From assembly GCA_963787185.1 (NCBI GenBank), contig CAWBCC010000011.1:135916-199915 (forward strand): a DNA stretch of 64,000 bases. The letters are read 5' to 3'. A program made the position numbers and the translations under genes. Of this stretch, positions 20,601 to 60,558 are shown piece after piece. Numbering within the stretch: the stretch's first letter is position 1; each line of letters begins with the position of its first letter. The stretch comes from an uncultured bacterium. GTDB taxonomy: Bacteria > Spirochaetota > Spirochaetia > Treponematales > Rectinemataceae. The notes beneath the pieces were generated by a model. The model had not been told where the DNA came from, made no database searches, and was given only the letters and a program-made list of their open reading frames with translations.

Positions 20601-21585
20601 TGCGCCCAAGATTCCCGAAGGCATCGCGCCGGCCGCGAAAGACTTTTACGGCTTCGTCAGAGGCATGCTTCGCCGAGAGGCCGCGGAAGAGGGGCTTCCC
20701 GGCGACCCCGAGCGGGTAGCGCCGGGCGGCGACCCCGAGCGGGTAGCGCCGGGCGGCGACCCCGAGCGGGTAGCGCCGGGCGGCGACCCCGAGCGGGTAG
20801 CGCCGGGCGGCGACCCCGAGCGGGTAGCGCCGGGCGGCGACCCCGACGCGAGCGCCGTTGCGGCGGCTTGCGAGCGCCTCGCGGCCGGACTCGCGGCCGT
20901 TTCGGCTATCGCGTCTTCAAAAAGCCGACCTGCTTCGGAATCGGAAGTGAACGATCAGACCGTTTTCGAAGAGCTCGTCCGACCGGGCCGGCCGCAGCTC
21001 GCGCTGTGCTATCTGGTGCTCGACGCTCTCCGTCCCCTCGTGGGGATGTCCGGCTCGGGCGAGGAGGCGCGGCGTCTGACGGACAGACTCTGCCTGGATC
21101 GAAAGCTTCGCGAGGCCCTTCGCGGGACCGGCATGCACGGCGACGAGGTCTTCCACGGCATGGCATTGGCGAAGGCTTTCCTGGCGCGATCGGGCGGGCC
21201 GGTCGAGATTCGTAGCCCGAAGCTCGCGAAGGGTTCCGCGGAGAAACCGGTCGCGCAGTGCGTCGAGGCGCTGATCGGGGCGGGAGGCGACGAAGAGCTG
21301 GGCGCCCTTCTCGGCGTCAACATATTCGAGGGCGTCACCTGGTTCAACAAGGAGCGCTTCGAAGAGGCGGCCCGCTTTGCCGCCCTGATCGATGCGCTGA
21401 CCTCGCCCTGGCCTCCGGCTTCCCGCGAGCCTGGCCTCGCTGAACGCTCAGACACGGCGGGCACGGCCGCCCGTCGATACATCGCGGCCGCGGAGACCGC
21501 GGGCTATCGCCTCGATCGTCTCGTCGAGCTCGCCGCTGCCGCAAAGGAATCTGAATCTCTTCCGAAAAGAAAGAAGGAAAGATGA
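17672..21585 (+). CDS. alpha-amylase-family (GH13-like) large protein, interrupted by an apparent 1-nt frameshift (possible pseudogene or sequencing error)
   Basis: ATG at 17672 is preceded by GGGGAGG. The catalytic-domain motifs are FNALWLIGLWERS and LAADMVPNHTG. The first frame becomes Arg/Pro-rich after ...ELLDWAGG and stops at 20719. The frame of track ORF 20275..21585 becomes protein-like exactly from LVRPEAAATGGTGKRPRAKAK... onward. The switch point is the G6 run 20524-20529, and one extra G joins the two frames. Confidence 0.75.
20701..20846 (+). repeat. 27-bp tandem repeat x 5.4, in frame, encoding (GDPERVAPG)n
   Basis: GGCGACCCCGAGCGGGTAGCGCCGGGC is repeated perfectly five times from 20701, followed by a partial sixth copy. 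The unit contains TAG in the alternative frame, which is what terminates the shifted upstream frame at 20719. Confidence 0.95.
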
Positions 21586-35554: not shown

Positions 35555-36868
35555 ATGAAACCAAGATCGGAACTGCTCTCCCGGCCCTTCGCGTCCGAAC
35601 TCGTCGAGCGCTTCGTGCGCTATGTCCAGATAGACTCCACCAGCGACCGCCATGTCGAGGACATACCCTCGACGCCGAACCAATGGAATATCGCGAAGCT
35701 TCTCGTCAAGGAACTCGAGGATCTCGGCGTCGAAGACCTCGTCCTCGACGACCACTGTTATCTCATCGCGCGCCTTCCTCCCGGTCCCGGCCTCGAGAGC
35801 CGCCCCTCGATAGGCTTGATGGCCCACATGGATACGGCGAGCGATGTGCCGGGACAGGACGTGAAACCGCGCGTGGTCGCCGCTTACGACGGAGGCCCGC
35901 TCGTCCTCGGCTCCGCCCGAAGGTCCGCCGTTTCGGATGCCGCGGATCGGGGTTCCGCGGCATCCGAAACGCTCGTTCTCGATCCGGCCGAAAATCCCGA
36001 CCTCGCCGAGCACGCGGGCGATACGATCGTGGTGACCGACGGCAGCACCCTCCTCGGCGCCGACGACAAGGCGGGCATCGCCGAGATCATGACCGCGGCG
36101 AGGTACATCCTCACGCATGACGACATTCCCCACGGGCCCATCGAGCTCATCTTCACGCCCGACGAGGAAACGGGCAAGGGCATGAACCTCTTCCCCCTGC
36201 AGAATCTCCGGTCGAAGATCTGCTACACCGTCGACGGAGGAAAGGCGGGCGAGATAGAAGCCGAGTGCTTCAATGCCTATTCCGTCAATGCCGAGTTCAA
36301 AGGGAGGTCGATCCACATAGGCTCCGCGCGCGGAAAGCTCGCCAACGCGGTAGCCATGGCGGGATCCTTCATATCGATGCTGCCGCGAAGCGAAAGCCCC
36401 GAAGCCACGGACGGCTGGTACGGCTACTACTGCCCCCTCGAAATGTCGGGCGGCATCGAGCGCGCCGCGGTCGAGGTCTTTCTGCGGGACTTCACGCGCG
36501 AGGGCATGGACCGCCGGATCGAAACCCTCGGGGCCCTCGCCAAGGCCGTCGAGGCGCAATTTCCCCTGGGATCGGTCGAGCTCACCGTCGCCAAGCAGTA
36601 CCTGAATATGCGCGAAAAGCTCGACGAGCGGCCCGAGGTGCTCGAGCGCCTGATGGAAGCCGCCCGGAGAGCCGGAGCCGAGCCTTTCGTCATGCCCATC
36701 CGCGGCGGCACCGACGGCGCGCGGCTCACCGAGATGGGCGTGCCCACCCCGAACATGTTCACGGGCGGCTACAACTACCACAGCCGCTATGAATGGGCTT
36801 CGCTATCGGACATGGCGCTCGCGACCGACACCCTGCTCGAATTGGTGAACCTCTGGGCGCATGCCTAG
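35555..36868 (+). CDS. pepT: peptidase T (tripeptide aminopeptidase, M20B)
   Basis: 437 aa. LVERFVRYVQIDSTSD...STPNQWNIAKLLVKELEDLG, GADDKAGIAEIM and IRGGTDGARL are typical of PepT. Confidence 0.85.
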   Translation: MKPRSELLSRPFASELVERFVRYVQIDSTSDRHVEDIPSTPNQWNIAKLLVKELEDLGVEDLVLDDHCYLIARLPPGPGLESRPSIGLMAHMDTASDVPGQDVKPRVVAAYDGGPLVLGSARRSAVSDAADRGSAASETLVLDPAENPDLAEHAGDTIVVTDGSTLLGADDKAGIAEIMTAARYILTHDDIPHGPIELIFTPDEETGKGMNLFPLQNLRSKICYTVDGGKAGEIEAECFNAYSVNAEFKGRSIHIGSARGKLANAVAMAGSFISMLPRSESPEATDGWYGYYCPLEMSGGIERAAVEVFLRDFTREGMDRRIETLGALAKAVEAQFPLGSVELTVAKQYLNMREKLDERPEVLERLMEAARRAGAEPFVMPIRGGTDGARLTEMGVPTPNMFTGGYNYHSRYEWASLSDMALATDTLLELVNLWAHA

Positions 36869-42925: not shown

Positions 42926-42929
<4 letters not shown>

Positions 42930-43789
42930 GAGGGATCGACAGACTCCGCGCCCGGCTCGAAGGATCGGAGGATATGAAGCTGATGATCCATTCGGTCTGC
43001 GGCTATCCCGACATCGAGACATCCCTGCGCATTTTCCGCGCTCTGGCCGGCTCGGGAGCCGACATCATCGAGGCTCAGCTGCCCTTTTCGGATCCCTCGG
43101 CCGACGGTCCCCTGATCGTCGAGGCCAATCACGCGGCCCTGCGCGGCGGCGCGACCACCGAGGCCTGTTTCGAGATGCTGGACAGGCTCAGAAGATCGGT
43201 CGACGTGCCTATCGTCGTGATGAGCTATGTCAATCCTCTCTTCTCGTACGGCATAAAGCGGGCCGTCGAGCGCATGGCGGCGATCGGCCTCGACGGCATG
43301 ATCGTCCCCGACTACCCCGACGACGAGCCCGAGCTGGGCCTCGACCGACTCGGCGAGGATGCCGGACTCGCCTTCGTTCCGCTCATCGCTCCCTCGACCG
43401 ACCTCGATCGCGCGATGCGCCTCGCGGGTCGCGTCTCCTCGCCGCTGCTCTACGCCGTGCTGCGCCCCGGCGTCACCGGACGCGCCACGGAGATAGACAC
43501 CGTAGCGGCCGAACGCCTCGCCCGACTCCGCGAGCGCACCGGAAAGTTCGTAGGCGCGGGCTTCGGTATCGGCAGGCGCGCACAGGTAGAGGCCCTCCGC
43601 GGCCGTGCCGACTGTGCCATAGTCGGAAGCGCATTGCTCGCGGCAATCATGACTGCCGCGAAGCTCACCGATCCATCGTATCGTGCCGATCCATCGTATC
43701 GTGCCGATCCATCGTATCATGCTGATCCGGCGGAGGCGGCGGGCGCGTTTCTGCGCGGGCTCGTCCCTCCGCGACTGCGGGAGACATAG
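42926..43789 (+). CDS. trpA: tryptophan synthase alpha chain with repeat-bearing C-terminal tail
   Basis: ATG at 42926 overlaps the trpB stop (ATGA). DIIEAQLPFSDPSADGPLI is the TrpA signature. The C-terminal tail is TDPSYRADPSYRADPSYHADPAEAA. Confidence 0.9.
43670..43729 (+). repeat. 18-bp tandem repeat x 3.3 inside the trpA 3' end, encoding (DPSYRA)n
   Basis: GATCCATCGTATCGTGCC occurs at 43670 and 43688. A diverged copy follows at 43706 (GATCCATCGTATCATGCT), then partial GATCCG. Confidence 0.9.
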
Positions 43790-43861
43790 CCGACGCCTTC
43801 TATATCAGGGATTTGCGCGAAGAGCGCCGGCGATCGACTCTTGAAATCGGTTCAAGCGACT

Positions 43862-44284
43862 TCAACCCTCGCAGTTCTGCCGTAGAAGATACTTATCCTC
43901 TAAAGTTTCCTTCCAAAGCGATAGATAGTTCCTCTGAAATCCCGGAATGGAAGCCTTGTAATACCGGACATTTCGATGTTCCTCGGACCTTTCCTTGCAA
44001 TATGGAACGAATGAAAAATCGTCATTCGCGACATGGACAACGGTAAAAACCGTTTCATCGTCTTTCAGATATTCCAATATCGTATTCGCCCCAGTCACTT
44101 CCTCGACGTACTTTAGAGTAGACTTCGCGGATATCAGAGCTGATTTGGAAAAGAAGAAAAAATTATGGAAAGTGGGAACGGACTCGATCATGATTCGCAA
44201 ATTTTCCAACACTTCCCTATTTTCGCCATTCTGCATTCTTTCGATCTTATGGTTCAGGATCTCCAGGGCAGCCTCTTTCGTCAT
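43862..44284 (-). CDS. hypothetical protein (140 aa) in an AT-rich islet
   Basis: It is the only sizeable ORF in the 43.8-44.3 kb segment, which has clearly lower G+C than the flanks by eye. Its composition is Lys/Glu/Asn-rich (MTKEAALEILNHKIERMQNGENREVLENL...). I recognised no family. Confidence 0.55.
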   Translation of the reverse strand: MTKEAALEILNHKIERMQNGENREVLENLRIMIESVPTFHNFFFFSKSALISAKSTLKYVEEVTGANTILEYLKDDETVFTVVHVANDDFSFVPYCKERSEEHRNVRYYKASIPGFQRNYLSLWKETLEDKYLLRQNCEG

Positions 44285-44368
44285 AAATGCCCCCGTAAAC
44301 GAAGCTTACGCATAATTTCATCATACTTTGGCCGATCGTCAAGGACTCCAATCGACATACCGCCGCTT

Positions 44369-45179
44369 AGCGTTTCACGCACATGGCGATTCCCATCCGC
44401 CGCCGTCGCGCAGGTCGCCGGAGGCGACCCCTACAACCACTTCCCTACAGCCCGGCGGCGGGATGGCGCTTCCGAATTTGCCATTCGCATTTCAGGGCTG
44501 TTCCACGCACATCGCTATGCCCATCCCGCCGCCGTCGCGCAGGTCGCCGGAGGCGACCCCTACAACCACTTCCCTACAGCCCGGCGGCGGGATGGCGCTT
44601 CCGAATTTGCCATTCGCATTTCAGGGCTGTTCCACGCACATCGCTATGCCCATCCCGCCGCCGTCGCGCAGGTCGCCGGAGGCGACCCCTACAACCACTT
44701 CCCTACAGCCCGGCGGCGGGATGGCGCTTCCGAATTTGCCATTCGCATTTCAGGGCTGTTCCACGCACATCGCTATGCCCATCCCGCCGCCGTCGCGCAG
44801 GTCGCCGGAGGCGACCCCTACAACCACTTCCCTACAGCCCGGCGGCGGGATGGCGCTTCCGAATTTGCCATTCGCATTTCAGGGCTGTTCCACGCACATC
44901 GCTATGCCCATCCCGCCGCCGTCGCGCAGGTCGCCGGAGGCGACCCCTACAACCACTTCCCTACAGCCCGGCGGCGGGATGGCGCTTCCGAATTTGCCAT
45001 TCGCATTTCAGGGCTGTTCCACGCACATCGCTATGCCCATCCCGCCGCCGTCGCGCAGGTCGCCGGAGGCGACCCCTACAACCACTTCCCTACAGCCCGA
45101 CGGCGGGATGGCGCTTCCGAATTTGCCATTCGCATTTCAGGGCTGTTCCACGCACATCGCTATGCCCATCCCGCCGCCG
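44369..45179. repeat. 129-bp tandem array, about 6.3 copies, containing the thiolase 3' terminus and its downstream flank
   Basis: Unit starts (CCATCCCGCC...) lie at 44393 (128 bp, one C fewer), 44521, 44650, 44779, 44908, 45037 and 45166, a period of 129 bp. Units 2-5 look identical and unit 6 has one G>A change (CCCGACGG). A degenerate partial copy spans 44369-44392. The last 43 nt of the array are the real end of the thiolase CDS. Confidence 0.95.
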
Positions 45180-46318
45180 ATGCACAGCGTCGCAAGGCCT
45201 TTCTTCGCCTTTCGCCGCTTCATCTCGTGCAGCAGGGTGACGAGGATACGCGCCCCCGAGGCGCCTATCGGGTGGCCGATGGCGATGGCGCCGCCGTTCA
45301 CATTGACCCTCGCCATGTCGAGACCGAGCTCCCTGGCGACGGCGAGCGCCTGAGCGGCGAAGGCTTCGTTGGCCTCGATGAGGTCGACATCGTCGAGCCG
45401 CCAGCCGGCGCGTCCCAGCGCGAGACGTACGGCCTCGACGGGGCCCATGCCCATGATCGAGGGGTCGACGCCGCGCCAGGCGTAGGACGCGATGCGCGCC
45501 ATCGGCTCCAGTCCGCGCCGCCCGAGACTGTCTTCGTCGAGCACGAGGAGGGCCGCGGCGCCGTCGTTGATGCCGGACGCGTTGCCCGCCGTCACCGTAC
45601 CCTCGCTCCTGAATGCGCCCTTGAGCTTGGCGAGAGACTCGGGAGTCACGCCCGCCCGGGGAAACTCGTCCCGGTCGAAGGGCACGGGCTCGCCCTTACG
45701 CTGAGGAACCGCGACGGGAACGATCTCATCGTCGAATCGCCCCTCGGCTTGGGCCCGCTCGGTCCTGTTCTGGGAAAGAGCGGCAAAGGCATCCTGGTCG
45801 GCCCGGCTGATCCCGTACTTCACGGCGATGTTCTCGGCGGTGATGCCCATGTGATAATCGTTGAAAATGTCCCAGAGTCCGTCGCTGATCATGGAGTCCA
45901 CGAGACTGCCGTCGCCCATGCGGTAGCCGGTGCGGGCCTGTCTGAGGATGTAAGGCGCCTGACTCATGCTCTCCACGCCGCCGGCTATCACCGCCGCGGC
46001 ATCGCCTGCCTTGACCGCCTGGGCCGCGGCCGCGACGGCGCGCAGCCCCGAACCGCAAACCATGTTGACGGTCTGCGCAGTCTTTTCGACGGGGATGCCC
46101 GACTTGACCAGGACCTGCCTTGCCATGTTTTGTCCCAGCCCCGACTGGAGAACGCAGCCGAGCGTCAGCTCGTCGATATCCCCCGGCTCGATGCCCGTGC
46201 GTTCCAACAGGGCGCGGACTACGGTCCTGCCGAGCTCGACCGCGCCCACCGAGGCCAGTGCTCCGCCGAAGCTGCCCACGGCCGTGCGAATTCCATCCGC
46301 TATGTACACTTCCTTCAT
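45137..46318 (-). CDS. thl: acetyl-CoA C-acetyltransferase (thiolase)
   Basis: 393 aa. [31 protein letters not shown] (active-site Cys) and [20 protein letters not shown] are present. The C-terminal end is [18 protein letters not shown]. Confidence 0.95.
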
Positions 46319-46363
46319 CGCTTTCCTCCTCGAGTGGATTTCAGAACCCTCCGCCGGCCCGCT

Positions 46364-47032
46364 TCACGAGACATCGGAGCAATGGCAGGTGCTCATCACG
46401 ACGACGTCGGCGTCGGTATGTTCGATGATCCATTCGGGTGTGTAGGGCTTGAACCATTCGAGAATGTAGAATTTCCCGCCCATCACTTCGAAGTAGCCGA
46501 TGTCGGTCACCACGAGATTGACCTCGCCGGCCGCAGTGAGCGGCAGGGAGCAGCGGCGTTTCAGCTTGGACGAGCCCGACTTTTCGAAGTGCGTGGTCGC
46601 GCCGATGACGACGCGCGAGCCCGCGACGAGGTCCATAGCGCCGCCCATTCCCGGCACCATCCTGCCGGGGATTTTGTAGTTGGCCAGATTGCCGTGCTGG
46701 TCGACCTCGAGGACGCCCAGGACCGTGTAATCGACGTGCCCCCCGCGGATGATCCCGAAGCTCGTCGCCGAGTCGAAGAAGCAGCCGCCGGGCAGGACCG
46801 AGACGGCCTGACCGCTCGCGTTGGTCAGGTCGGCGTCTTCCTCCCGGAGCGCGGGAAGCGGCCCCAGGCCGAGCATGCCGTTCTCGGACTGGAGCACCAC
46901 CGTGACCTCCGACGGAAGGTAGTTGGCCACGAGGGTCGGCAGTCCGATGCCGAGGTTGACGACGTCGCCCGTCTTGAAGATGTGGGCGATGCGCCGCGCG
47001 ATGATTTCCTTGTTCTCGACGTATTCTATCAT
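46364..47032 (-). CDS. atoA: 3-oxoacid (acetoacetate) CoA-transferase subunit B
   Basis: 222 aa. IARRIAHIFKTGDVVNLGIGLPTLVANYLP...VVLQSENGMLGLGP contains the catalytic-Glu motif SENG. Confidence 0.88.
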   Translation of the reverse strand: MIEYVENKEIIARRIAHIFKTGDVVNLGIGLPTLVANYLPSEVTVVLQSENGMLGLGPLPALREEDADLTNASGQAVSVLPGGCFFDSATSFGIIRGGHVDYTVLGVLEVDQHGNLANYKIPGRMVPGMGGAMDLVAGSRVVIGATTHFEKSGSSKLKRRCSLPLTAAGEVNLVVTDIGYFEVMGGKFYILEWFKPYTPEWIIEHTDADVVVMSTCHCSDVS

Positions 47033-47041
47033 GTCCGTCTC

Positions 47042-47719
47042 CTACTCGGCCGAGCGCACGAGAAAATGCACGAAGATGGAAGGGGTATGGACATCGTCCG
47101 GATCGATCTCGCCGATCTCGACGATCTCCTCGACCTCCGCGATGACCAGGGCGCAGGCCGAGGCCATGATCGGGTTGAAGTTGCGCGCCGTCTTCGAATA
47201 GCGCAGGTTGCCCGCGCGGTCGGCCTTCTTGGCCTTGACGATCGCGATGTCTCCGGGCAGAGGCAGCTCGAGGAGAAATCCCCTGCCCTCGATGGTGAGC
47301 ACCTGCTTGCCCTGTTCGACTTCCGTGCCGAGCCCCGTCGGAGTGAGAAAGCCGCCGAGACCGTTCCCGGACGAGCGAATGCGCTCCGCGAGAGTCCCCT
47401 GCGGGACGAGATCTACTATGGTCTCGCCGGCGTTCATCTGCCGCTGAGTCTCGGGGTTCGTGCCGATGTGCGACACTATGACGCGCGAAAACTGACGATT
47501 CGCGATGAGCGGCGCCACGCCGGTCATCCTACCCGTCTTGGGATCGAAGATCGACGTGTCGTTGGCGACGAGAGTGAGTCCTTTCGTGCCCGACTTCGCC
47601 AGCTCGGCGATGACTCCCTCCGGGGAGCCGCAGCCCAGAAAGCCCCCGATATGGACGGTCATGCCCTCTTTGACCTTGGCCGCCGCCTCCGCGGCCGATA
47701 TCACCGGTTTCCGCACCAC
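47042..47719 (-). CDS. atoD: 3-oxoacid (acetoacetate) CoA-transferase subunit A
   Basis: Start chosen at GTG (47719-47717) preceded by AGGAGGTGGGAA. VVRKPVISAAEAAAKVKEGMTVHIGGFLGCGSPEGVI is typical of subunit A. The 33 extra N-terminal codons of the track ORF run into the repeat region. Confidence 0.85.
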   Translation of the reverse strand: MVRKPVISAAEAAAKVKEGMTVHIGGFLGCGSPEGVIAELAKSGTKGLTLVANDTSIFDPKTGRMTGVAPLIANRQFSRVIVSHIGTNPETQRQMNAGETIVDLVPQGTLAERIRSSGNGLGGFLTPTGLGTEVEQGKQVLTIEGRGFLLELPLPGDIAIVKAKKADRAGNLRYSKTARNFNPIMASACALVIAEVEEIVEIGEIDPDDVHTPSIFVHFLVRSAE

Positions 47720-47757
47720 TTCCCACCTCCTGATCGCACACACATTAGAAAGCAAGA

Positions 47758-48076
47758 CCAAGGGGAGGCACAGAGAAGAGAGAAAAAAGCTCGGTGAACG
47801 AGCGCGCGGAGATTCCAACCGCCATTCGCTCCCTCACCCTTCCCATCTTCCTCCCGTTACTCCTCTTCTCTCTCCCTCTTCCCTCCGCGCCTCTGTGGCC
47901 AATCCCTTCTCCCCTATCGGAACCCTCAAAGAATCAGCCACGGAGACACAGAGAAGAGAAAAAGTTCGATGAGCGAGCGCCGAGACTTCAACAGCATATC
48001 CCCTCCCCCTCATCATCCTCCCACTACTACTCCTCTTCTCTCTCCCTCTTCCCTCCGTGCCTCTGTGGCCAATCCC
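47758..48076. repeat. two tandem copies (A1, A2) of the purine/pyrimidine-asymmetric inverted-repeat element
   Basis: A1 spans about 47762-47899 and A2 spans 47937-48069. Both end ...CCTCTTCTCTCTCCCTCTTCCCTCCG(C/T)GCCTCTGTGGCCAATCCC, with a 170-bp period between the CTCTGTGGCC ends. Linker ...CAAAGAATCAGCCAC joins them. The block lies between atoD and the kamE stop. Confidence 0.9.
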
Positions 48077-48077
48077 C

Positions 48078-48821
48078 TCATGCCCTTGCTTTTTCGACAA
48101 GCTTCTTCACGATGAAGGTCGCAACGTCGTTCGCGTAGGCGCCTCGGCAGAATCCGACATCGTAGCCCAGCTCCACGGCGAGCTTGTTCGAAATGCGCGG
48201 CCCTCCCGCGACGCAGATGTAGCGGCTGCGCTCGCCCCTGGCTTCGAGGAGCTCTATGAACTGGGTCATGTTCCGGATGTGGACATCCTTCTGCGTCACG
48301 ACCTGGGACACGAGTATCGCGTCGGCACCCACCCGTTCGGAGTACTCGATGAGCTTTTCGTTGGGAACCTGCGCCCCAAGATTGTGCGCATCGATCATCG
48401 GATAGCGCTCGAGGCCGAAGTGATGATTGTAGCCCTTCATGTTCATGATGGCGTCGATGCCGACTGTGTGCGCGTCGAAGCCCGTGCAGGCGCCCACCAC
48501 CACGATCTTGCGGCCTATTTGGGAGCGTATGAACTCGTTCACCCCGTCCATCGAGAGAGACTCGTCGGCACAGTGGGCCTCGTCTGCCCTGACCCCTTCG
48601 TAGTCGATGCCGCGTTCGGTCCCGGCGTAGGCGACGTAGAAGGAAAAATCGTCGGCCAGGGCGGCTGAGTGCACGATCTCGCAGTCCTTGAAGCCCCAGC
48701 CGAGAATCATGAGGCGGGCCGCCTCCCTCCCGCGCGGCCCCTCCGGCACGGGAAGAGCGAAAGAAAGCTGTACCTTGCCGTCGTCCAACGTGTCCCCGTA
48801 GGGACGGATCACATTCGCCAT
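48078..48821 (-). CDS. kamE: D-lysine 5,6-aminomutase beta subunit (B12-binding)
   Basis: 247 aa. MANVIRPYGDTLDDGKVQLSF... and the cobalamin-binding segment GACTGFDAHTVGIDAIMNMKG fit KamE, as does its position after kamD. Confidence 0.88.
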   Translation of the reverse strand: MANVIRPYGDTLDDGKVQLSFALPVPEGPRGREAARLMILGWGFKDCEIVHSAALADDFSFYVAYAGTERGIDYEGVRADEAHCADESLSMDGVNEFIRSQIGRKIVVVGACTGFDAHTVGIDAIMNMKGYNHHFGLERYPMIDAHNLGAQVPNEKLIEYSERVGADAILVSQVVTQKDVHIRNMTQFIELLEARGERSRYICVAGGPRISNKLAVELGYDVGFCRGAYANDVATFIVKKLVEKARA

Positions 48822-54747: not shown

Positions 54748-55072
54748 AGGCATGGAGGCACGGAGAAGAGAGAAAAGAAATTGAGGAAAGAAGAAAAGCG
54801 GTAATTCCAATTGTGACCCGCCCCCCCGCCCTTTGCCCTCATCCGGCACCATCCTCACTCCTCTCCTCTCTCTCCCTTCCCTCCGTGCCTCTGTGGCATA
54901 TCTCTTCTCTTTCTTACAGGCCCTTCAAAGAATCGAGCCACAGAGGAAGAAGGCAGAAGAAGTCCGATGGGAGCGAGAGCCGAGATTCCAGTTGCAAGCC
55001 GCCCCTTCACCTTATCTTCCTCCCCATTATTCCTCTTCCCTCTTCCTCTTTCCCCCTCCGTGCCCCTGTGGC
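54748..55072. repeat. two tandem copies (C1, C2) of the same element
   Basis: C1 spans 54748-54897 (GAGGCATGGAGGCACGGAGAAGAGAGAAAAG...CTCCCTTCCCTCCGTGCCTCTGTGGC). The linker is ...CAAAGAATCGA. C2 spans 54937-55072 (GCCACAGAGGAAGAAGGCAGAAGAAG...GAGCGAGAGCCGAGATTCCAGTT...CCCCCTCCGTGCCCCTGTGGC). The block lies between the kamA start and the kce stop. Confidence 0.9.
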
Positions 55073-55085
55073 TAATTCCCTTCTT

Positions 55086-55907
55086 CTAATTCTTCAGCTT
55101 GAGGTACTTTCGCACATCGTCGGGTTCGGCGGGGCTCAGATCGGCCTCGCGGGCGATGCGTGCGGCCCGCTCGACGAGTTGGGCGTTGGATGTCGCGAGG
55201 ACGCCCTTCGAGAAGTAGACGTTGTCTTCGAAGCCCACGCGGATCCAGCCGCCGCGGGCGATGGCTCCGTACTGGGCGGGAAGCGAGGCTCGGCCTATGC
55301 CCATGACCGTGAAGTCCGCGCCGGGCGGCATCGCGGACACGAAGGCTTCCAGGGTCGCGACGCTGTAGGGGACGGCTCCCGGCACGTTGAGCACGAATCC
55401 GTAATGCAGCGGCGCCTCGATGAGCCCTTCCTTCAGCAGCATCCGGCTTGCGTACACGTGCCCGAGATCGAAGCACTCGAGCGTGGGCCTGACCTTGTGG
55501 GCGCGGAACTGGGAGGCGAACTCGCGCATGAGGGGCAGCGTGTTGACGATGTAGTCGTTTCCGAAGTTGACGGTGCCGCAGTCGAGACTGGCCATCTCCG
55601 GCTCGAGCTCCACCACGGGGCGGAGCCGCTCCTCGGCCGTGTCGCCCACCGCTCCGCCCGTGGTGATCTCCACGACGATGTCCGTCCTGCGCCGTACCGC
55701 GGCGATCACTTCCTTGAACCGCGCGGGGCTCTGGGTGGGCGCTCCCTCCGGCGTGCGAACGTGAAGGTGGAGAATGGCCGCCCCGGCCTGGCGTGCCTCG
55801 TAGGCGGTCCGAGCCACTTCATCGGGCGTCATCGGAAGCGCCGGGTTCTGCGCCTTGCTCGTCTCCGCCCCCGTGCACGCGCAGGTGATCACTATCTTAC
55901 CGTCCAT
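55086..55907 (-). CDS. kce: 3-keto-5-aminohexanoate cleavage enzyme (BKACE family)
   Basis: 273 aa. MDGKIVITCACTGAETSKAQNPALPMTPDEVARTAYEARQAGAAILHLHVR matches the Kce/BKACE N-terminus, in lysine-fermentation context. Confidence 0.85.
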   Translation of the reverse strand: MDGKIVITCACTGAETSKAQNPALPMTPDEVARTAYEARQAGAAILHLHVRTPEGAPTQSPARFKEVIAAVRRRTDIVVEITTGGAVGDTAEERLRPVVELEPEMASLDCGTVNFGNDYIVNTLPLMREFASQFRAHKVRPTLECFDLGHVYASRMLLKEGLIEAPLHYGFVLNVPGAVPYSVATLEAFVSAMPPGADFTVMGIGRASLPAQYGAIARGGWIRVGFEDNVYFSKGVLATSNAQLVERAARIAREADLSPAEPDDVRKYLKLKN

Positions 55908-57731: not shown

Positions 57732-57780
57732 ACGGCCTCCTACGTTAAGTCAAAATATCAGCTCTCATATCATCTTCACG

Positions 57781-58163
57781 CTACTCCTCTTCTCTCCCTC
57801 TCCCCTCCGTGCCTCTGTGGCATTCTCTTCTCCTCCCCAACGCCCCTCGAAGAATCAAGCCACGGAGGCACAGAGGAAGAAAGGAAAAGAAGCTTGGTGG
57901 AGCGAGAGCCGAGATTCCAATTACTCTCCCCCCCCATCCTCCCCATCACCCCTCTTCTCTCTCCCTCCCTCTTCCCTCCGTGCCTCTGTGGCATTCTCTC
58001 CGCCTATTTCAGGACCGTTGAAGAATCAAGCCACGGAGGCACAGAGGAAGAAGGGAGAAGAAGCTTGGTGGAGCGAGAGCCGAGATTCCAATTACTCTCC
58101 CCCCCCATCCTCCCCATCACCCCTCTTCTCTCTCCCTCCCTCTCCCCTCCGTGCCTCTGTGAC
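57781..58163. repeat. 2.3 tandem copies (D1 partial, D2, D3) of the same element
   Basis: D1 is the right end only (57781-57821). D2 spans 57859-57992 and D3 spans 58030-58163, both 134 bp and differing at 4 positions. The period is 171 bp. The conserved linker is ...GAAGAATCAAGCCAC. The block lies between the aminotransferase start and the kdd stop. Confidence 0.95.
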
Positions 58164-58175
58164 CTATCCCTTTCC

Positions 58176-59215
58176 TCACTTCACGTACTGCGTCTCGAAG
58201 AGCTTGCGCAGGCCGGGGTTCTCGCGCAGCTCCCAGAGAGTGATCTCCGCGTGATCCCTGGTGTAGCCGTTGCCGATGATCATGGTCACGTCCTTGCCGA
58301 TGCCTTCGGCCCCGAGAGCGGCGCGCGTGAAACTCGTGGCCATCGAGAAGAAGTAGACCATGCCCTCGTCCTTCACGGGAAGAATCGAGGCCATCTCCGA
58401 GCCCTGGATGTTGACGCAGTTGATGCAGAGGTCGACCTCCATCCCGCCGTTGACCGCGAGCACGGCGTCGAGAACCTCGGTGGGCCTGGTGGCGTCGGCG
58501 GTGACGATCTCGTGGGCGAGCTTGAGCCGGGAAAGGGTCTCGCGCGAACGTTCGGAGTGGATGACGGCGATGACGCGGCCGGTGGGGCCTACGCGCTTCA
58601 TGGCCTCGTAGCAGCATAGAATGCCGGACTTGCCGCCCGCTCCGAGAACGAGGACCGACATGCCCGGCTTCACGAGCTTGGCCGTCTGGGCGGGGGCCCC
58701 CGCGACGTCGAGGGCGGCGAGGGCGAGGCCCTCGTCCATGTCGGAGGGAAGTTTGGCGTAAATGCCGGACTCGAAGAGGATGGCCTGGGCCTCCACCTCG
58801 AGTCGGTCGATTTCGGAGTGAACCTTGAGTATCCTGCCGATCTTGAGGGGGGTGAGCAGAGAGATACGAGGCTCGCGATCCTGTCGCCGACCTCGAGGTC
58901 GCGGCCGGCGAGGGCCGAGCCGATCTTGGCCACGGTGCCGATGAGCATGCCGCCCGAGCCGGTGACGGGGTTCTGCTGCTTACCGCGGGCGGCGACGATG
59001 CCCGCGATGATGGACTTGATCTTTTCCACGTCGCCCGCAGCCTCTTCTTCGATCTGAGTGAAGGAAGCGGAGTCTATGTTGAGCGCGGTGACGTCGAGGA
59101 GGATCTCGTTGTCGTAGACGATCGACATGTCGTTGTTGAGCTTCTGCGCCGTCTGCGGCATTGCGCCCGCCGGCTCGACGACTCGGTGCGTACCATACTT
59201 GTTGCCCATCGGCAT
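58176..59215 (-). CDS. kdd: L-erythro-3,5-diaminohexanoate dehydrogenase, interrupted by an apparent 1-nt frameshift (possible pseudogene or sequencing error)
   Basis: The N-terminal frame (MPMGNKYGTHRVVEPAGAMPQTAQKLNNDMSIVYDNEILLDVTALNIDSASFTQ...GDRIASLVSL) turns Ser/Pro/Arg-rich after codons over 58847-58870. The second frame reads ...LTPLKIGRILKVHSEIDRLEVEAQAILFESG...GAGGKSGILC... to the stop at 58176. The joint is at the G6 (coding-strand C6) run 58847-58852, and one extra C restores a roughly 346-aa protein. Confidence 0.75.
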
Positions 59216-60264: not shown

Positions 60265-60295
60265 GCCCCGCCCGCGAAGACGAGCGGGGCTTTTT
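60265..60295 (+). terminator. rho-independent terminator
   Basis: GCCCCGC (60265-60271) pairs with GCGGGGC (60284-60290), and the stem is followed by TTTTT (60291-60295). It lies 21 nt after the stop at 60243. Confidence 0.8.
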
Positions 60296-60396
60296 ACTGA
60301 CCCGGCAATTGAAAAGCTGTCATCGCATCGAAAAAGGGCTTAGCCCTGCGGTCCTTTTTCGATGCTCACGTCAACTGTTTTATTGCCGGGTCAGTA
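60295..60396. repeat. 102-nt long imperfect palindrome (two-tier hairpin)
   Basis: The outer arms TACTGACCCGGCAAT (60295-60309) and ATTGCCGGGTCAGTA (60382-60396) form a perfect 15 bp. The inner arms GCATCGAAAAAGG (60325-60337) and CCTTTTTCGATGC (60353-60365) form a perfect 13 bp. The loop is 15 nt, with a 15/16-nt internal mismatch region. Confidence 0.85.
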
Positions 60397-60558
60397 ATCC
60401 CCTGTCGCCTATACCCCTATAGGTAATCGAAATGTTGTGGTCCATCGCAATCTCGAAAAGGGCTTTCGGGCGGGCGGGCCATACGGCCTCGCGCCCGCGC
60501 GGTAGCTTTCCGCGTTGACAGAGACCGCCCCTCCGACTAAGGTGGCCGCGGAGGCGCC

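Follow-up and report, generated by a model that had tools for sequence, protein, structure and literature searches.

A strain-variable tandem array of a conserved, structured module at the 3' end of a lysine-fermentation operon in Rectinemataceae-like spirochaetes

The DNA analysed here, referred to as the window, is a 64,000-nucleotide stretch of contig CAWBCC010000011.1 (assembly GCA_963787185.1) from an uncultured bacterium of the Rectinemataceae. On its minus strand lies the gene for acetyl-CoA C-acetyltransferase (thiolase), the final gene of a lysine-fermentation operon with the order kce-kamA-kamDE-CoA-transferase A/B-thiolase. The operon was recognised by its Pfam marks in L001 and L002, two other contigs of the same species, namely BKACE, lysine 2,3-aminomutase, lysine 5,6-aminomutase alpha and beta, two CoA-transferase subunits and thiolase. 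The names given to the closest thiolase homologues indicate Rectinemataceae or Treponema-like spirochaetes. The end of the thiolase gene runs into a tandem array, placed by Tandem Repeats Finder at 44372–45179 with a period of 129, 6.3 copies, 99% matches and a score of 1574. An initial annotation of the sequence had described this array as a tandem re-duplication of the gene end together with a structured flank, which is indeed what is present, in the form of six 129-bp units at 44405–45178. The array is real, polymorphic in copy number, conserved across species and restricted to this locus; its structure is kept and it shows no coding signal. The features of the array, in window coordinates, are as follows.

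45137–46318, minus strand: acetyl-CoA C-acetyltransferase (thiolase), 393 aa (Pfam Thiolase_N 4.6e-99, Thiolase_C 3.5e-52)
44405–45178, minus strand: six 129-bp units, head-to-tail (Tandem Repeats Finder and sequence)
45178–45050, 45049–44921, 44920–44792, 44791–44663, 44662–44534 and 44533–44405, minus strand: limits of the units
45100: substitution in unit 1, A instead of G on the plus strand
45098–45111, minus strand: 3' arm of helix H1 in unit 1, holding the substitution at 45100 (one G-C pair becomes G-U)
44921–45049, minus strand: unit 2, example anatomy (segment A 45008–45049, segment B 44960–45007, segment C 44921–44959)
45037–45050, minus strand: 5' arm of helix H1 of unit 2, CGGCGGCGGGATGG
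44969–44982, minus strand: 3' arm of helix H1 of unit 2, CCATCCCGCCGCCG
44930–44944, minus strand: helix H2 of unit 2, GTCGCC-TCC-GGCGAC
44367–44404, minus strand: A', GGCGGCGG-ATGGGAATCGCCATGTGCGTGAAACGCTAA, a partial gene-end copy, diverged and frameshifted, at the distal boundary of the array

Each unit is composed of the last 13 codons and stop codon of the thiolase gene followed by an 87-nt flank, and was divided into three segments. Segment A (42 nt, the 13 codons and TGA) starts the unit with GGCGGCGGGATGGGCATAGCGATGTGCGTGGAACAGCCCTGA, the C-terminal 13 residues and stop of the thiolase, the same as the end of the 393-aa open reading frame (ORF); in unit 1 this segment is the last 42 nt of the gene itself (45137–45178). 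Segment B (48 nt) has a variable 5' part and CCATCCCGCCGCCGGGCTGTAGG, reading AATGCGAATGGCAAATTCGGAAGCG-CCATCCCGCCGCCG-GGCTGTAGG, and segment C (39 nt) reads GAAGTGGTTGTAGGG-GTCGCC-TCC-GGCGAC-CTGCGCGAC. Units 2–6 are identical in sequence and unit 1, the true gene end, differs by one substitution, that at 45100, which is the sole substitution within the array. What the initial annotation had listed as a unit lacking one C is no unit; it is the diverged remnant A' at the distal end, with four substitutions, one deletion and a putative reading of MGIAMCVKR-stop. This remnant had been overlooked, as had the age of the arrangement and its occurrence in several species.

The units contain a 14-nt inverted repeat whose arms are spaced 47 nt apart one way and 54 nt the other way. 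The expected number of perfect inverted repeats of 14 nt or more, with a loop no longer than 80 nt, is 0.05 per window, and only two loci outside the array have one, hence the inverted repeat of the array is no chance feature. A perfect 14-mer pair had been described for every unit, which is correct for all units but unit 1, where one pair is G-U. Several further details of the initial annotation were recovered, including the inner hairpin (GTCGCC-TCC-GGCGAC on the minus strand), the small ATGGC...GCCAT stem in the units, the single in-frame stop in every 43-codon unit and a duplication junction within the motif C-x-GGG-x-G, at its GGG codons.

A look-up with the exact thiolase protein returned four other places. 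Positions 44285–45200 are byte-identical in L002 (ENA ERZ25039593, a 371-kb contig) and L003 (ERZ25039473). Outside this stretch, L002 shows 14 mismatches and 4 gaps to the window over 21 kb, and L003 shows 55 mismatches and 25 gaps over 7.6 kb, hence these are separate assemblies; their ‘contig_N’ names and indel-type noise suggest a long-read origin. The identical six-unit array is therefore found in three separate assemblies (the window, L002 and L003) from at least two samples. A further contig, L019 (GCA_052915925.1), has the same unit-1 substitution and stops inside unit 2 in a short-read-like break. Two others, L001 (GCA_052139715.1) and L004 (GCA_052916005.1), have the arrangement A-B-C-A', that is one unit with A' retained, in flanks 99.8–99.95% identical to the window. 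The substitution at 45100 is present in L002, L003 and L019 and missing from these two one-unit contigs, which are not simple collapses of the six-unit allele because their path out of the gene lacks the substitution.

An assembler that expanded a single copy, as the initial annotation had also considered, would account for the identity of units 2–6 and for the two same-species contigs with one unit. Independent assemblies nevertheless agree on the same six units in at least two samples, the fourth assembly breaks in unit 2 in the manner typical of short-read assemblers at real repeats, and two other species carry homologous arrays of distinguishable units. An artefact is thus extremely improbable: the array is no assembler expansion and the species has at least two alleles. 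The identity of the units, together with a 99.95%-identical strain with one unit, also bears out the recent amplification or homogenisation proposed for this strain.

Homologous arrays were detected in relatives, at the corresponding gene end. The arrangement persists in three species, even though their thiolase genes are only about 80–84% identical in DNA, and the units in every array copy the host species’ own thiolase end. In the thiolase-85% species the number of gene-end copies ranges over 1 (L008), 2 (L009), at least 2 (L010), 4 (L014) and 5 (L013), with unit variants that are distinguishable and unit lengths and array periods of 125/124 bp. The thiolase-82% species has 3.3 units in L016 and 2.3 units in L020 (unit length 136–144 bp, periods 144/142 bp), with diverged units in differing order, and both of these arrays end in C-A'. 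The initial annotation had reasoned that diverged arrays without structural covariation would point to an old neutral duplication; the diverged units of these relatives keep their structure, with compensatory changes. The thiolase-88% species (L005–L007) carries one A-B-C unit followed by a 5'-truncated methyl-accepting chemotaxis protein (MCP) gene at the same junction. The C-to-A junction, GCGCRAC directly followed by GGCGGCGG, is identical in all arrays. Other relatives have nothing comparable at the thiolase 3' position (L011, L015/L023 and L021), two unrelated G+C hairpins where the module sits elsewhere (L017/L018), or, in the outgroup species L022, a bidirectional terminator of canonical form in the equivalent position.

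Two side observations concern these relatives. In the thiolase-82% species (L016 4141–4720 and L020 3610–3965), the thiolase alleles P0011 (...CVER) and P0012 (...CVQR) differ solely in the repeated gene end, and the same array contains a silent copy of the alternative ending. An exchange of units could rewrite the last residues of the thiolase, although a single point mutation explains the difference equally well. In an array-less relative (L015 1296–1299, L023 1262–1265), the stop codons of the thiolase and the converging trpA are shared in the palindrome CTAG, hence the two convergent operons end with zero spacer.

Searches with the element returned this locus only. An exact 24-mer of the flank had no match in GTDB species representatives and JGI metagenomes, and a degenerate pattern of the core matched solely homologous thiolase-end loci, with one site in the sole GTDB species-representative genome that had a match. 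A covariance model built from the units matched solely thiolase 3' ends across 170 kb, the whole window included. Rfam 15 gave no match in the window at gathering thresholds and, with E up to 10, a single chance match of 8.5 bits. Plasmid and phage searches with the flank gave no match, and only 32 coding nucleotides matched other thiolases.

We also weighed whether the locus could be the footprint of a mobile or integrative element, either as att-like gene-end repeats or as a small non-autonomous transposable element. The A ... A' direct repeats of a gene 3' end do resemble attL/attR, as in att-site duplications, where a displaced, diverged duplicate lies some distance beyond the functional gene end. 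The adjoining AT-rich orphan gene (described below) looks acquired, and in L005 the same junction abuts the truncated MCP gene at GGCGGC. Here, however, merely 87 nt lie between the repeats, and these are non-coding and conserved; the copies are amplified in tandem, and the orphan falls outside the A...A' interval. The genes called over 10 kb to each side include no integrase, transposase or reverse transcriptase, and the element occurs at no other locus searched, nor in plasmids or phages. On the lack of a recombinase over that span and the shortness of the conserved inter-repeat stretch, duplication of an att site by an integrative element was rejected. The L005 junction can be accounted for by a deletion at (GGC)n microhomology. 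Overall, a mobile footprint is very unlikely. The MCP fragment itself (L005 5183–5716, also in L006 and L007) is a truncated methyl-accepting chemotaxis signalling domain of 160 aa that starts near ...AARAGEAGKGFAVVA; it is fused at the usual junction, ...GCGCGAC followed by GGCGGCC, after the single A-B-C unit, which suggests deletions at the (GGC)n microhomology.

The units contain a conserved 64-nt non-coding core, made up of the 3' part of B and all of C. This core is 77–88% identical between species, with one 1-nt indel, compared with 60–70% for thiolase third codon positions, and the 21–46 nt right after the stop codon are unalignable between species. Two helices on the sense strand of the thiolase are predicted by RNAalifold, whether 11 or 12 distinct units are supplied. 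In H1, the Gly-Gly-Gly-Met codons CGGCGGCGGSATGG pair with the 3' part of B about 54 nt downstream, enclosing the last 9 thiolase codons and the stop codon. H2 is a G+C hairpin in C, about 25 nt beyond H1, with a stem of 6–8 bp and a 3-nt loop.

Both helices are kept although the units have diverged between and within arrays. Over 20 pairs and 12 distinct units, 98.3% of the cells can pair, whereas partners slid by 1–3 columns do so in 27–62%. One two-sided change was detected in each helix: in H1 the synonymous Gly codon change GGC to GGG is matched by GCC to CCC, and in H2 GTCGCC/GGCGAC alternates with CTCGCC/GGCGAG, with both forms occurring within one array. None of 500 shuffles matched the observed covariation score. 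One-sided changes in H1 all yield G-U, which fits an RNA of the sense strand, the sole strand where G-U pairs. Fold z-scores were -3.1 for the one-unit RNA and -6.7 for the array.

These results bear directly on a neutral explanation, in which the array is a minisatellite that arose by an old accidental duplication and changes by function-free slippage, its hairpins being leftovers of a terminator-like flank. Such a minisatellite would fit the range of 1 to 6 copies among near-identical strains, the loss of the module in several related lineages and the absence of any known motif in the array. Other perfect tandem repeats are present in the window (27 bp x 6, 18 bp x 3.4 and 171 bp x 2.2), which suggests a genome prone to such events. 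Neutrality is harder to reconcile with a core far better conserved than third codon positions and the adjacent 21–46 nt, with compensatory and G-U changes that preserve the helices, and with an arrangement kept in three species at the thiolase divergence given above. We regard it as rather unlikely, with the proviso that constraint is argued for the module and not for the number of copies.

A coding interpretation would draw on the fact that 129 bp corresponds to 43 codons with a single in-frame stop. Either read-through of the stop (or slippage, as the initial annotation had speculated) would add 43-aa modules, or each unit would encode a 27-aa peptide with a GTG, ATG or TTG start in C and the thiolase C-terminus as its end; one of these start codons does occupy a constant position across the species and shares the frame of the gene-end copy. 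The periods of the relatives (125, 124 and 142 bp) are not multiples of 3 and break the frame. Furthermore, C, the segment upstream of the gene-end copy, has no third-position bias, with variable columns at codon positions 1/2/3 of 6/4/3, compared with 1/1/6 in A. The Shine-Dalgarno-like GAGG is merely about 2 nt from the start, and stops occur in the antisense frames of some units. Read-through modules are thus contradicted by the relatives, and a coding repeat of either kind is barely credible.

As the initial annotation had noted, RNA folds allow each 14-mer to pair with either neighbour, and the A:B and B:next-A pairings are both perfect 14-mers. This raises a further explanation, in which the array is a translation-sensing RNA switch whose register is flipped by ribosomes in an attenuator-like manner to control downstream events, or a protein-titrating 3' untranslated region (UTR), where CsrA or another regulator could attach to the GGA-containing, purine-rich linker. 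The stop codon does lie within H1, and the predicted single-stranded linker GGGCTGYRAGGAARTGGTTGYAGGG is conserved. The last unit in the second (85%) species, however, has no downstream partner, the downstream gene varies by species (orphan, opposite-strand trpA or MCP fragment) and no covariation separates the two registers. As regards titration, GGA motifs are expected in any purine-rich sequence, and no site complementary to the linker, as a target in trans, was found elsewhere in the window. A switch or titration device of this kind is improbable. The same low probability attaches to the bolder proposal that the core and its Gly-codon arm constitute an undescribed cis-acting RNA device, confined to the lysine-fermentation operons of this clade, in which ribosome occupancy sets the pairing register of the array like a ‘zipper’. 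Were it true, the register would decide between 3'-end formation, downstream read-through and collision with the trp transcript, and copy number would be a heritable, rapidly mutable dial on that decision.

The module is also not a canonical intrinsic terminator. It resembles intrinsic and bidirectional terminators in its position at the end of an operon facing the converging trp operon and in its stable G+C hairpins, and H2 is a G+C hairpin with a short loop, as expected of an intrinsic terminator. It differs in having no U- or A-tract, an arm inside coding sequence, a 54-nt loop and up to six repetitions. A scan of 43500–45500 with the intrinsic terminator consensus returned no sites; canonical terminators do exist elsewhere in this genome, for example at 60267–60300.

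On balance, we lean towards reading the array as a strain-variable amplification of a conserved, structured 3'-UTR module that acts as a barrier or stabiliser at the mRNA 3' end. That the array is real, conserved, structured and driven by recombination is very probable; the role of the module at the RNA 3' end is put forward more tentatively, as possible. The recombination mechanism and any selective value of extra copies are inferred. In a clade of Rectinemataceae-like spirochaetes, the lysine-fermentation operon would have this module as its 3' untranslated end. The functional unit of the module would be H1-linker-H2 on the thiolase-sense RNA, forming a barrier to 3' exonucleases, and it may also serve as a non-canonical 3' end or an insulator facing the converging trp operon. 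Protection of the upstream mRNA by hairpins would resemble that described below for the repeats of enterobacteria, with extra copies adding more of the same. The position fits such a role, as array-less relatives carry two G+C hairpins (L017) or a canonical bidirectional terminator (L022) at the corresponding site. The gene end is repeated because the 5' arm of H1 is coding sequence, so that duplication of the whole module must carry the 13 codons and stop along with it.

In this reconstruction, the ancestor of the clade would have had at least the module and a second gene-end copy (A-B-C-A'). The A...A' direct repeats and the (GGC)3/(GCC)3 tracts would offer a substrate for unequal recombination or slippage, and the resulting expansion and contraction may give 1 to 6 copies while units within one array stay alike. 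Each array would then evolve in concert, followed by expansions, contractions and losses. Once two perfect 129-bp units are present, copy number would be expected to change fast, which fits 1 versus 6 units between 99.95%-identical strains.

Several points weigh against the proposed 3'-end module. It is wholly missing in several close relatives (L011, L015/L023, L017 and L021) and is therefore dispensable. No U-tract follows either hairpin, H2 being followed by CTGCGCGAC, and it is for this reason that the module does not qualify as a canonical intrinsic terminator. The covariation amounts to two pairs and few independent events, and correction of quasi-palindromes at the DNA level could be an alternative source of the pattern. 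Finally, L001 and L004 are possibly short-read assemblies, in which the copy number of one unit is less certain and could be under-called.

A number of other identities were tried and rejected. Identical head-to-tail 129-bp units without spacers do not make a CRISPR array. A diversity-generating retroelement does not fit, as the differences in L016 (C/A, G/T, C/G and G/A) are not adenine-specific and the units in the window are identical; no reverse transcriptase domain was found among the called genes. Segment C is not diverged thiolase coding sequence from upstream of A, since its local alignment to the whole gene scores no better than shuffles and the stretch just upstream of A ranks mid-field among all windows of that gene. 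An origin of B and C as a relic of the trpA C-terminus is not supported, as TrpA tails vary by species and the likeness is only one of low-complexity Ala/Arg; nor is one from an MCP gene, as the L005 fragment begins at the junction itself and is no orthologue of the MCP of L011. H2 was dropped as a UNCG tetraloop (its 6-bp stem carries a loop of 3 nt), a REP-like GTAG foot is present here and in one relative only and is not conserved, and the G-runs of a possible G-quadruplex in the linker are not conserved between species.

Downstream of the array lie an orphan ORF and the end of the converging operon.

43862–44284, minus strand: AT-rich orphan ORF, 140 aa, outside the repeat, between the array and trpA
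42926–43789, plus strand: trpA, last gene of the converging trp operon

The orphan ORF has about 43–50% G+C, compared with 65–70% in its surroundings. All assemblies of this species carry the ORF, whereas it is missing from related species, in which trpA is directly opposite the array. Pfam, PADLOC and PHROG searches with it returned no significant match. At the 3' end of trpA, an 18-bp x 3.4 tandem repeat (43668–43728, plus strand) encodes DPSYRA repeats in the C-terminal tail of TrpA. TrpA of related species lacks them, making this a second recent tandem expansion less than 700 bp from the array. Three antisense ORFs run through the array and thiolase on the plus strand (44165–47797, 44328–45353 and 44383–45240; 1210, 341 and 285 aa), the 285-aa ORF being called as a gene in L002 and L003. 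We rejected them as genes and consider them artefacts of the repeat and high G+C content, with weak Pfam matches (Lysyl_oxidase, CBM_19) that lack significant stretches.

Other repeats were also detected in the window. A CT-rich (plus strand) repeat family of about 170 nt occupies spacers of the lysine-fermentation operon (47831–48083, 54789–55086 and 57758–58177), where it is often paired in tandem (171 bp x 2.2 at 57787–58161), and each copy has CCTCCGTGCCTCTGTGGC with its complement nearby. The family has the look of a dispersed, structured intergenic repeat, unrelated in sequence to the 129-bp unit. A near-perfect 27-bp x 6.2 tandem repeat, CGGCGACCCCGAGCGGGTAGCGCCGGG, is found at 20700–20865. 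The hairpin-plus-T-run terminator at 60267–60300 is directly followed by an AT-rich element of about 100 nt (60296–60397) with terminal inverted repeats of 15–16 nt (TACTGACCCGGCAAT ... ATTGCCGGGTCAGTA) and an inner hairpin with 13-nt arms, which looks like a miniature inverted-repeat transposable element. A perfect hairpin at 35929–35972, CCGTTTCGGATGCCGCGGA...TCCGCGGCATCCGAAACG, with a 7-nt loop between arms of about 19 nt, is one of the two long perfect inverted repeats of the window outside the array.

The element shares traits with several known families of intergenic repeats. Among these are the repetitive extragenic palindromic (REP) sequences and bacterial interspersed mosaic elements (BIMEs) of enterobacteria, whose stem-loops reportedly stabilise upstream mRNA against 3' exonucleases. 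REPs, which lie in transcribed regions, measure about 35 nt, occur in hundreds of dispersed copies, alternate in orientation within BIMEs, are mobilised by RAYT transposases and are not known to include coding sequence. As in REP/BIME, the palindromic units described here are G+C-rich, lie just after stop codons and may form tandem clusters of variable number. They differ in being 125–144 bp long, in occurring, over the 170 kb scanned and the one matching representative genome, at one locus rather than dispersed, in their uniformly direct orientation and in including 13 codons and a stop, and no RAYT (TnpA-REP) transposase was found among the called genes around the locus; on dispersal, unit length and orientation, assignment to REP/BIME was rejected.

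Variable-number tandem repeats (VNTRs) of the mycobacterial interspersed repetitive unit (MIRU) type are likewise tandem units of tens to about 100 bp between operon genes, vary between strains and are interlocked with the flanking reading frames; copy-number polymorphism is present here too, with 1 versus 6 units in this species. MIRUs insert at start codons, coupling the MIRU ORF to the gene (PMC12548453). In contrast to the dispersed, apparently mobile, multi-locus MIRUs with their small translated ORFs, the unit at the thiolase locus is single-locus, under no coding constraint and overlaps the end of the upstream gene, through the arm of an RNA helix. A MIRU-type VNTR was rejected on the lack of a dispersed family in the sequences searched, the periods in relatives that are not multiples of 3 and the absence of third-position bias in C. 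BOX elements of Streptococcus pneumoniae, which are among the pneumococcal repeats (PMC3049150), share a modular (A-B-C) intergenic organisation, a tandemly variable middle module and a predicted stable RNA structure, but they are unrelated in sequence, have more than 100 dispersed copies and are not known to contain coding sequence. The element is thus a locus-specific member of the structured intergenic tandem repeats represented by REP/BIME, MIRU and BOX, unusual in its inclusion of coding sequence and its persistence at a single locus across species. No described equivalent was found in the literature searched.

The array illustrates a route by which coding sequence may enter a non-coding repeat, with a helix arm placed in conserved Gly codons and copied along with the gene end. 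As a natural single-locus minisatellite, shared across species and homogenised within arrays, it would lend itself to studies of unequal recombination and concerted evolution among uncultured bacteria, and the module is a candidate 3'-UTR RNA motif without an Rfam counterpart. For metagenome assembly it serves as a warning, as short-read contigs break, and may collapse, at the array locus. At the same time, the array is a ready VNTR strain marker for Rectinemataceae-like lysine fermenters. Should mRNA stability or termination be tuned by copy number, the array would provide these spirochaetes with a simple heritable dial on expression.

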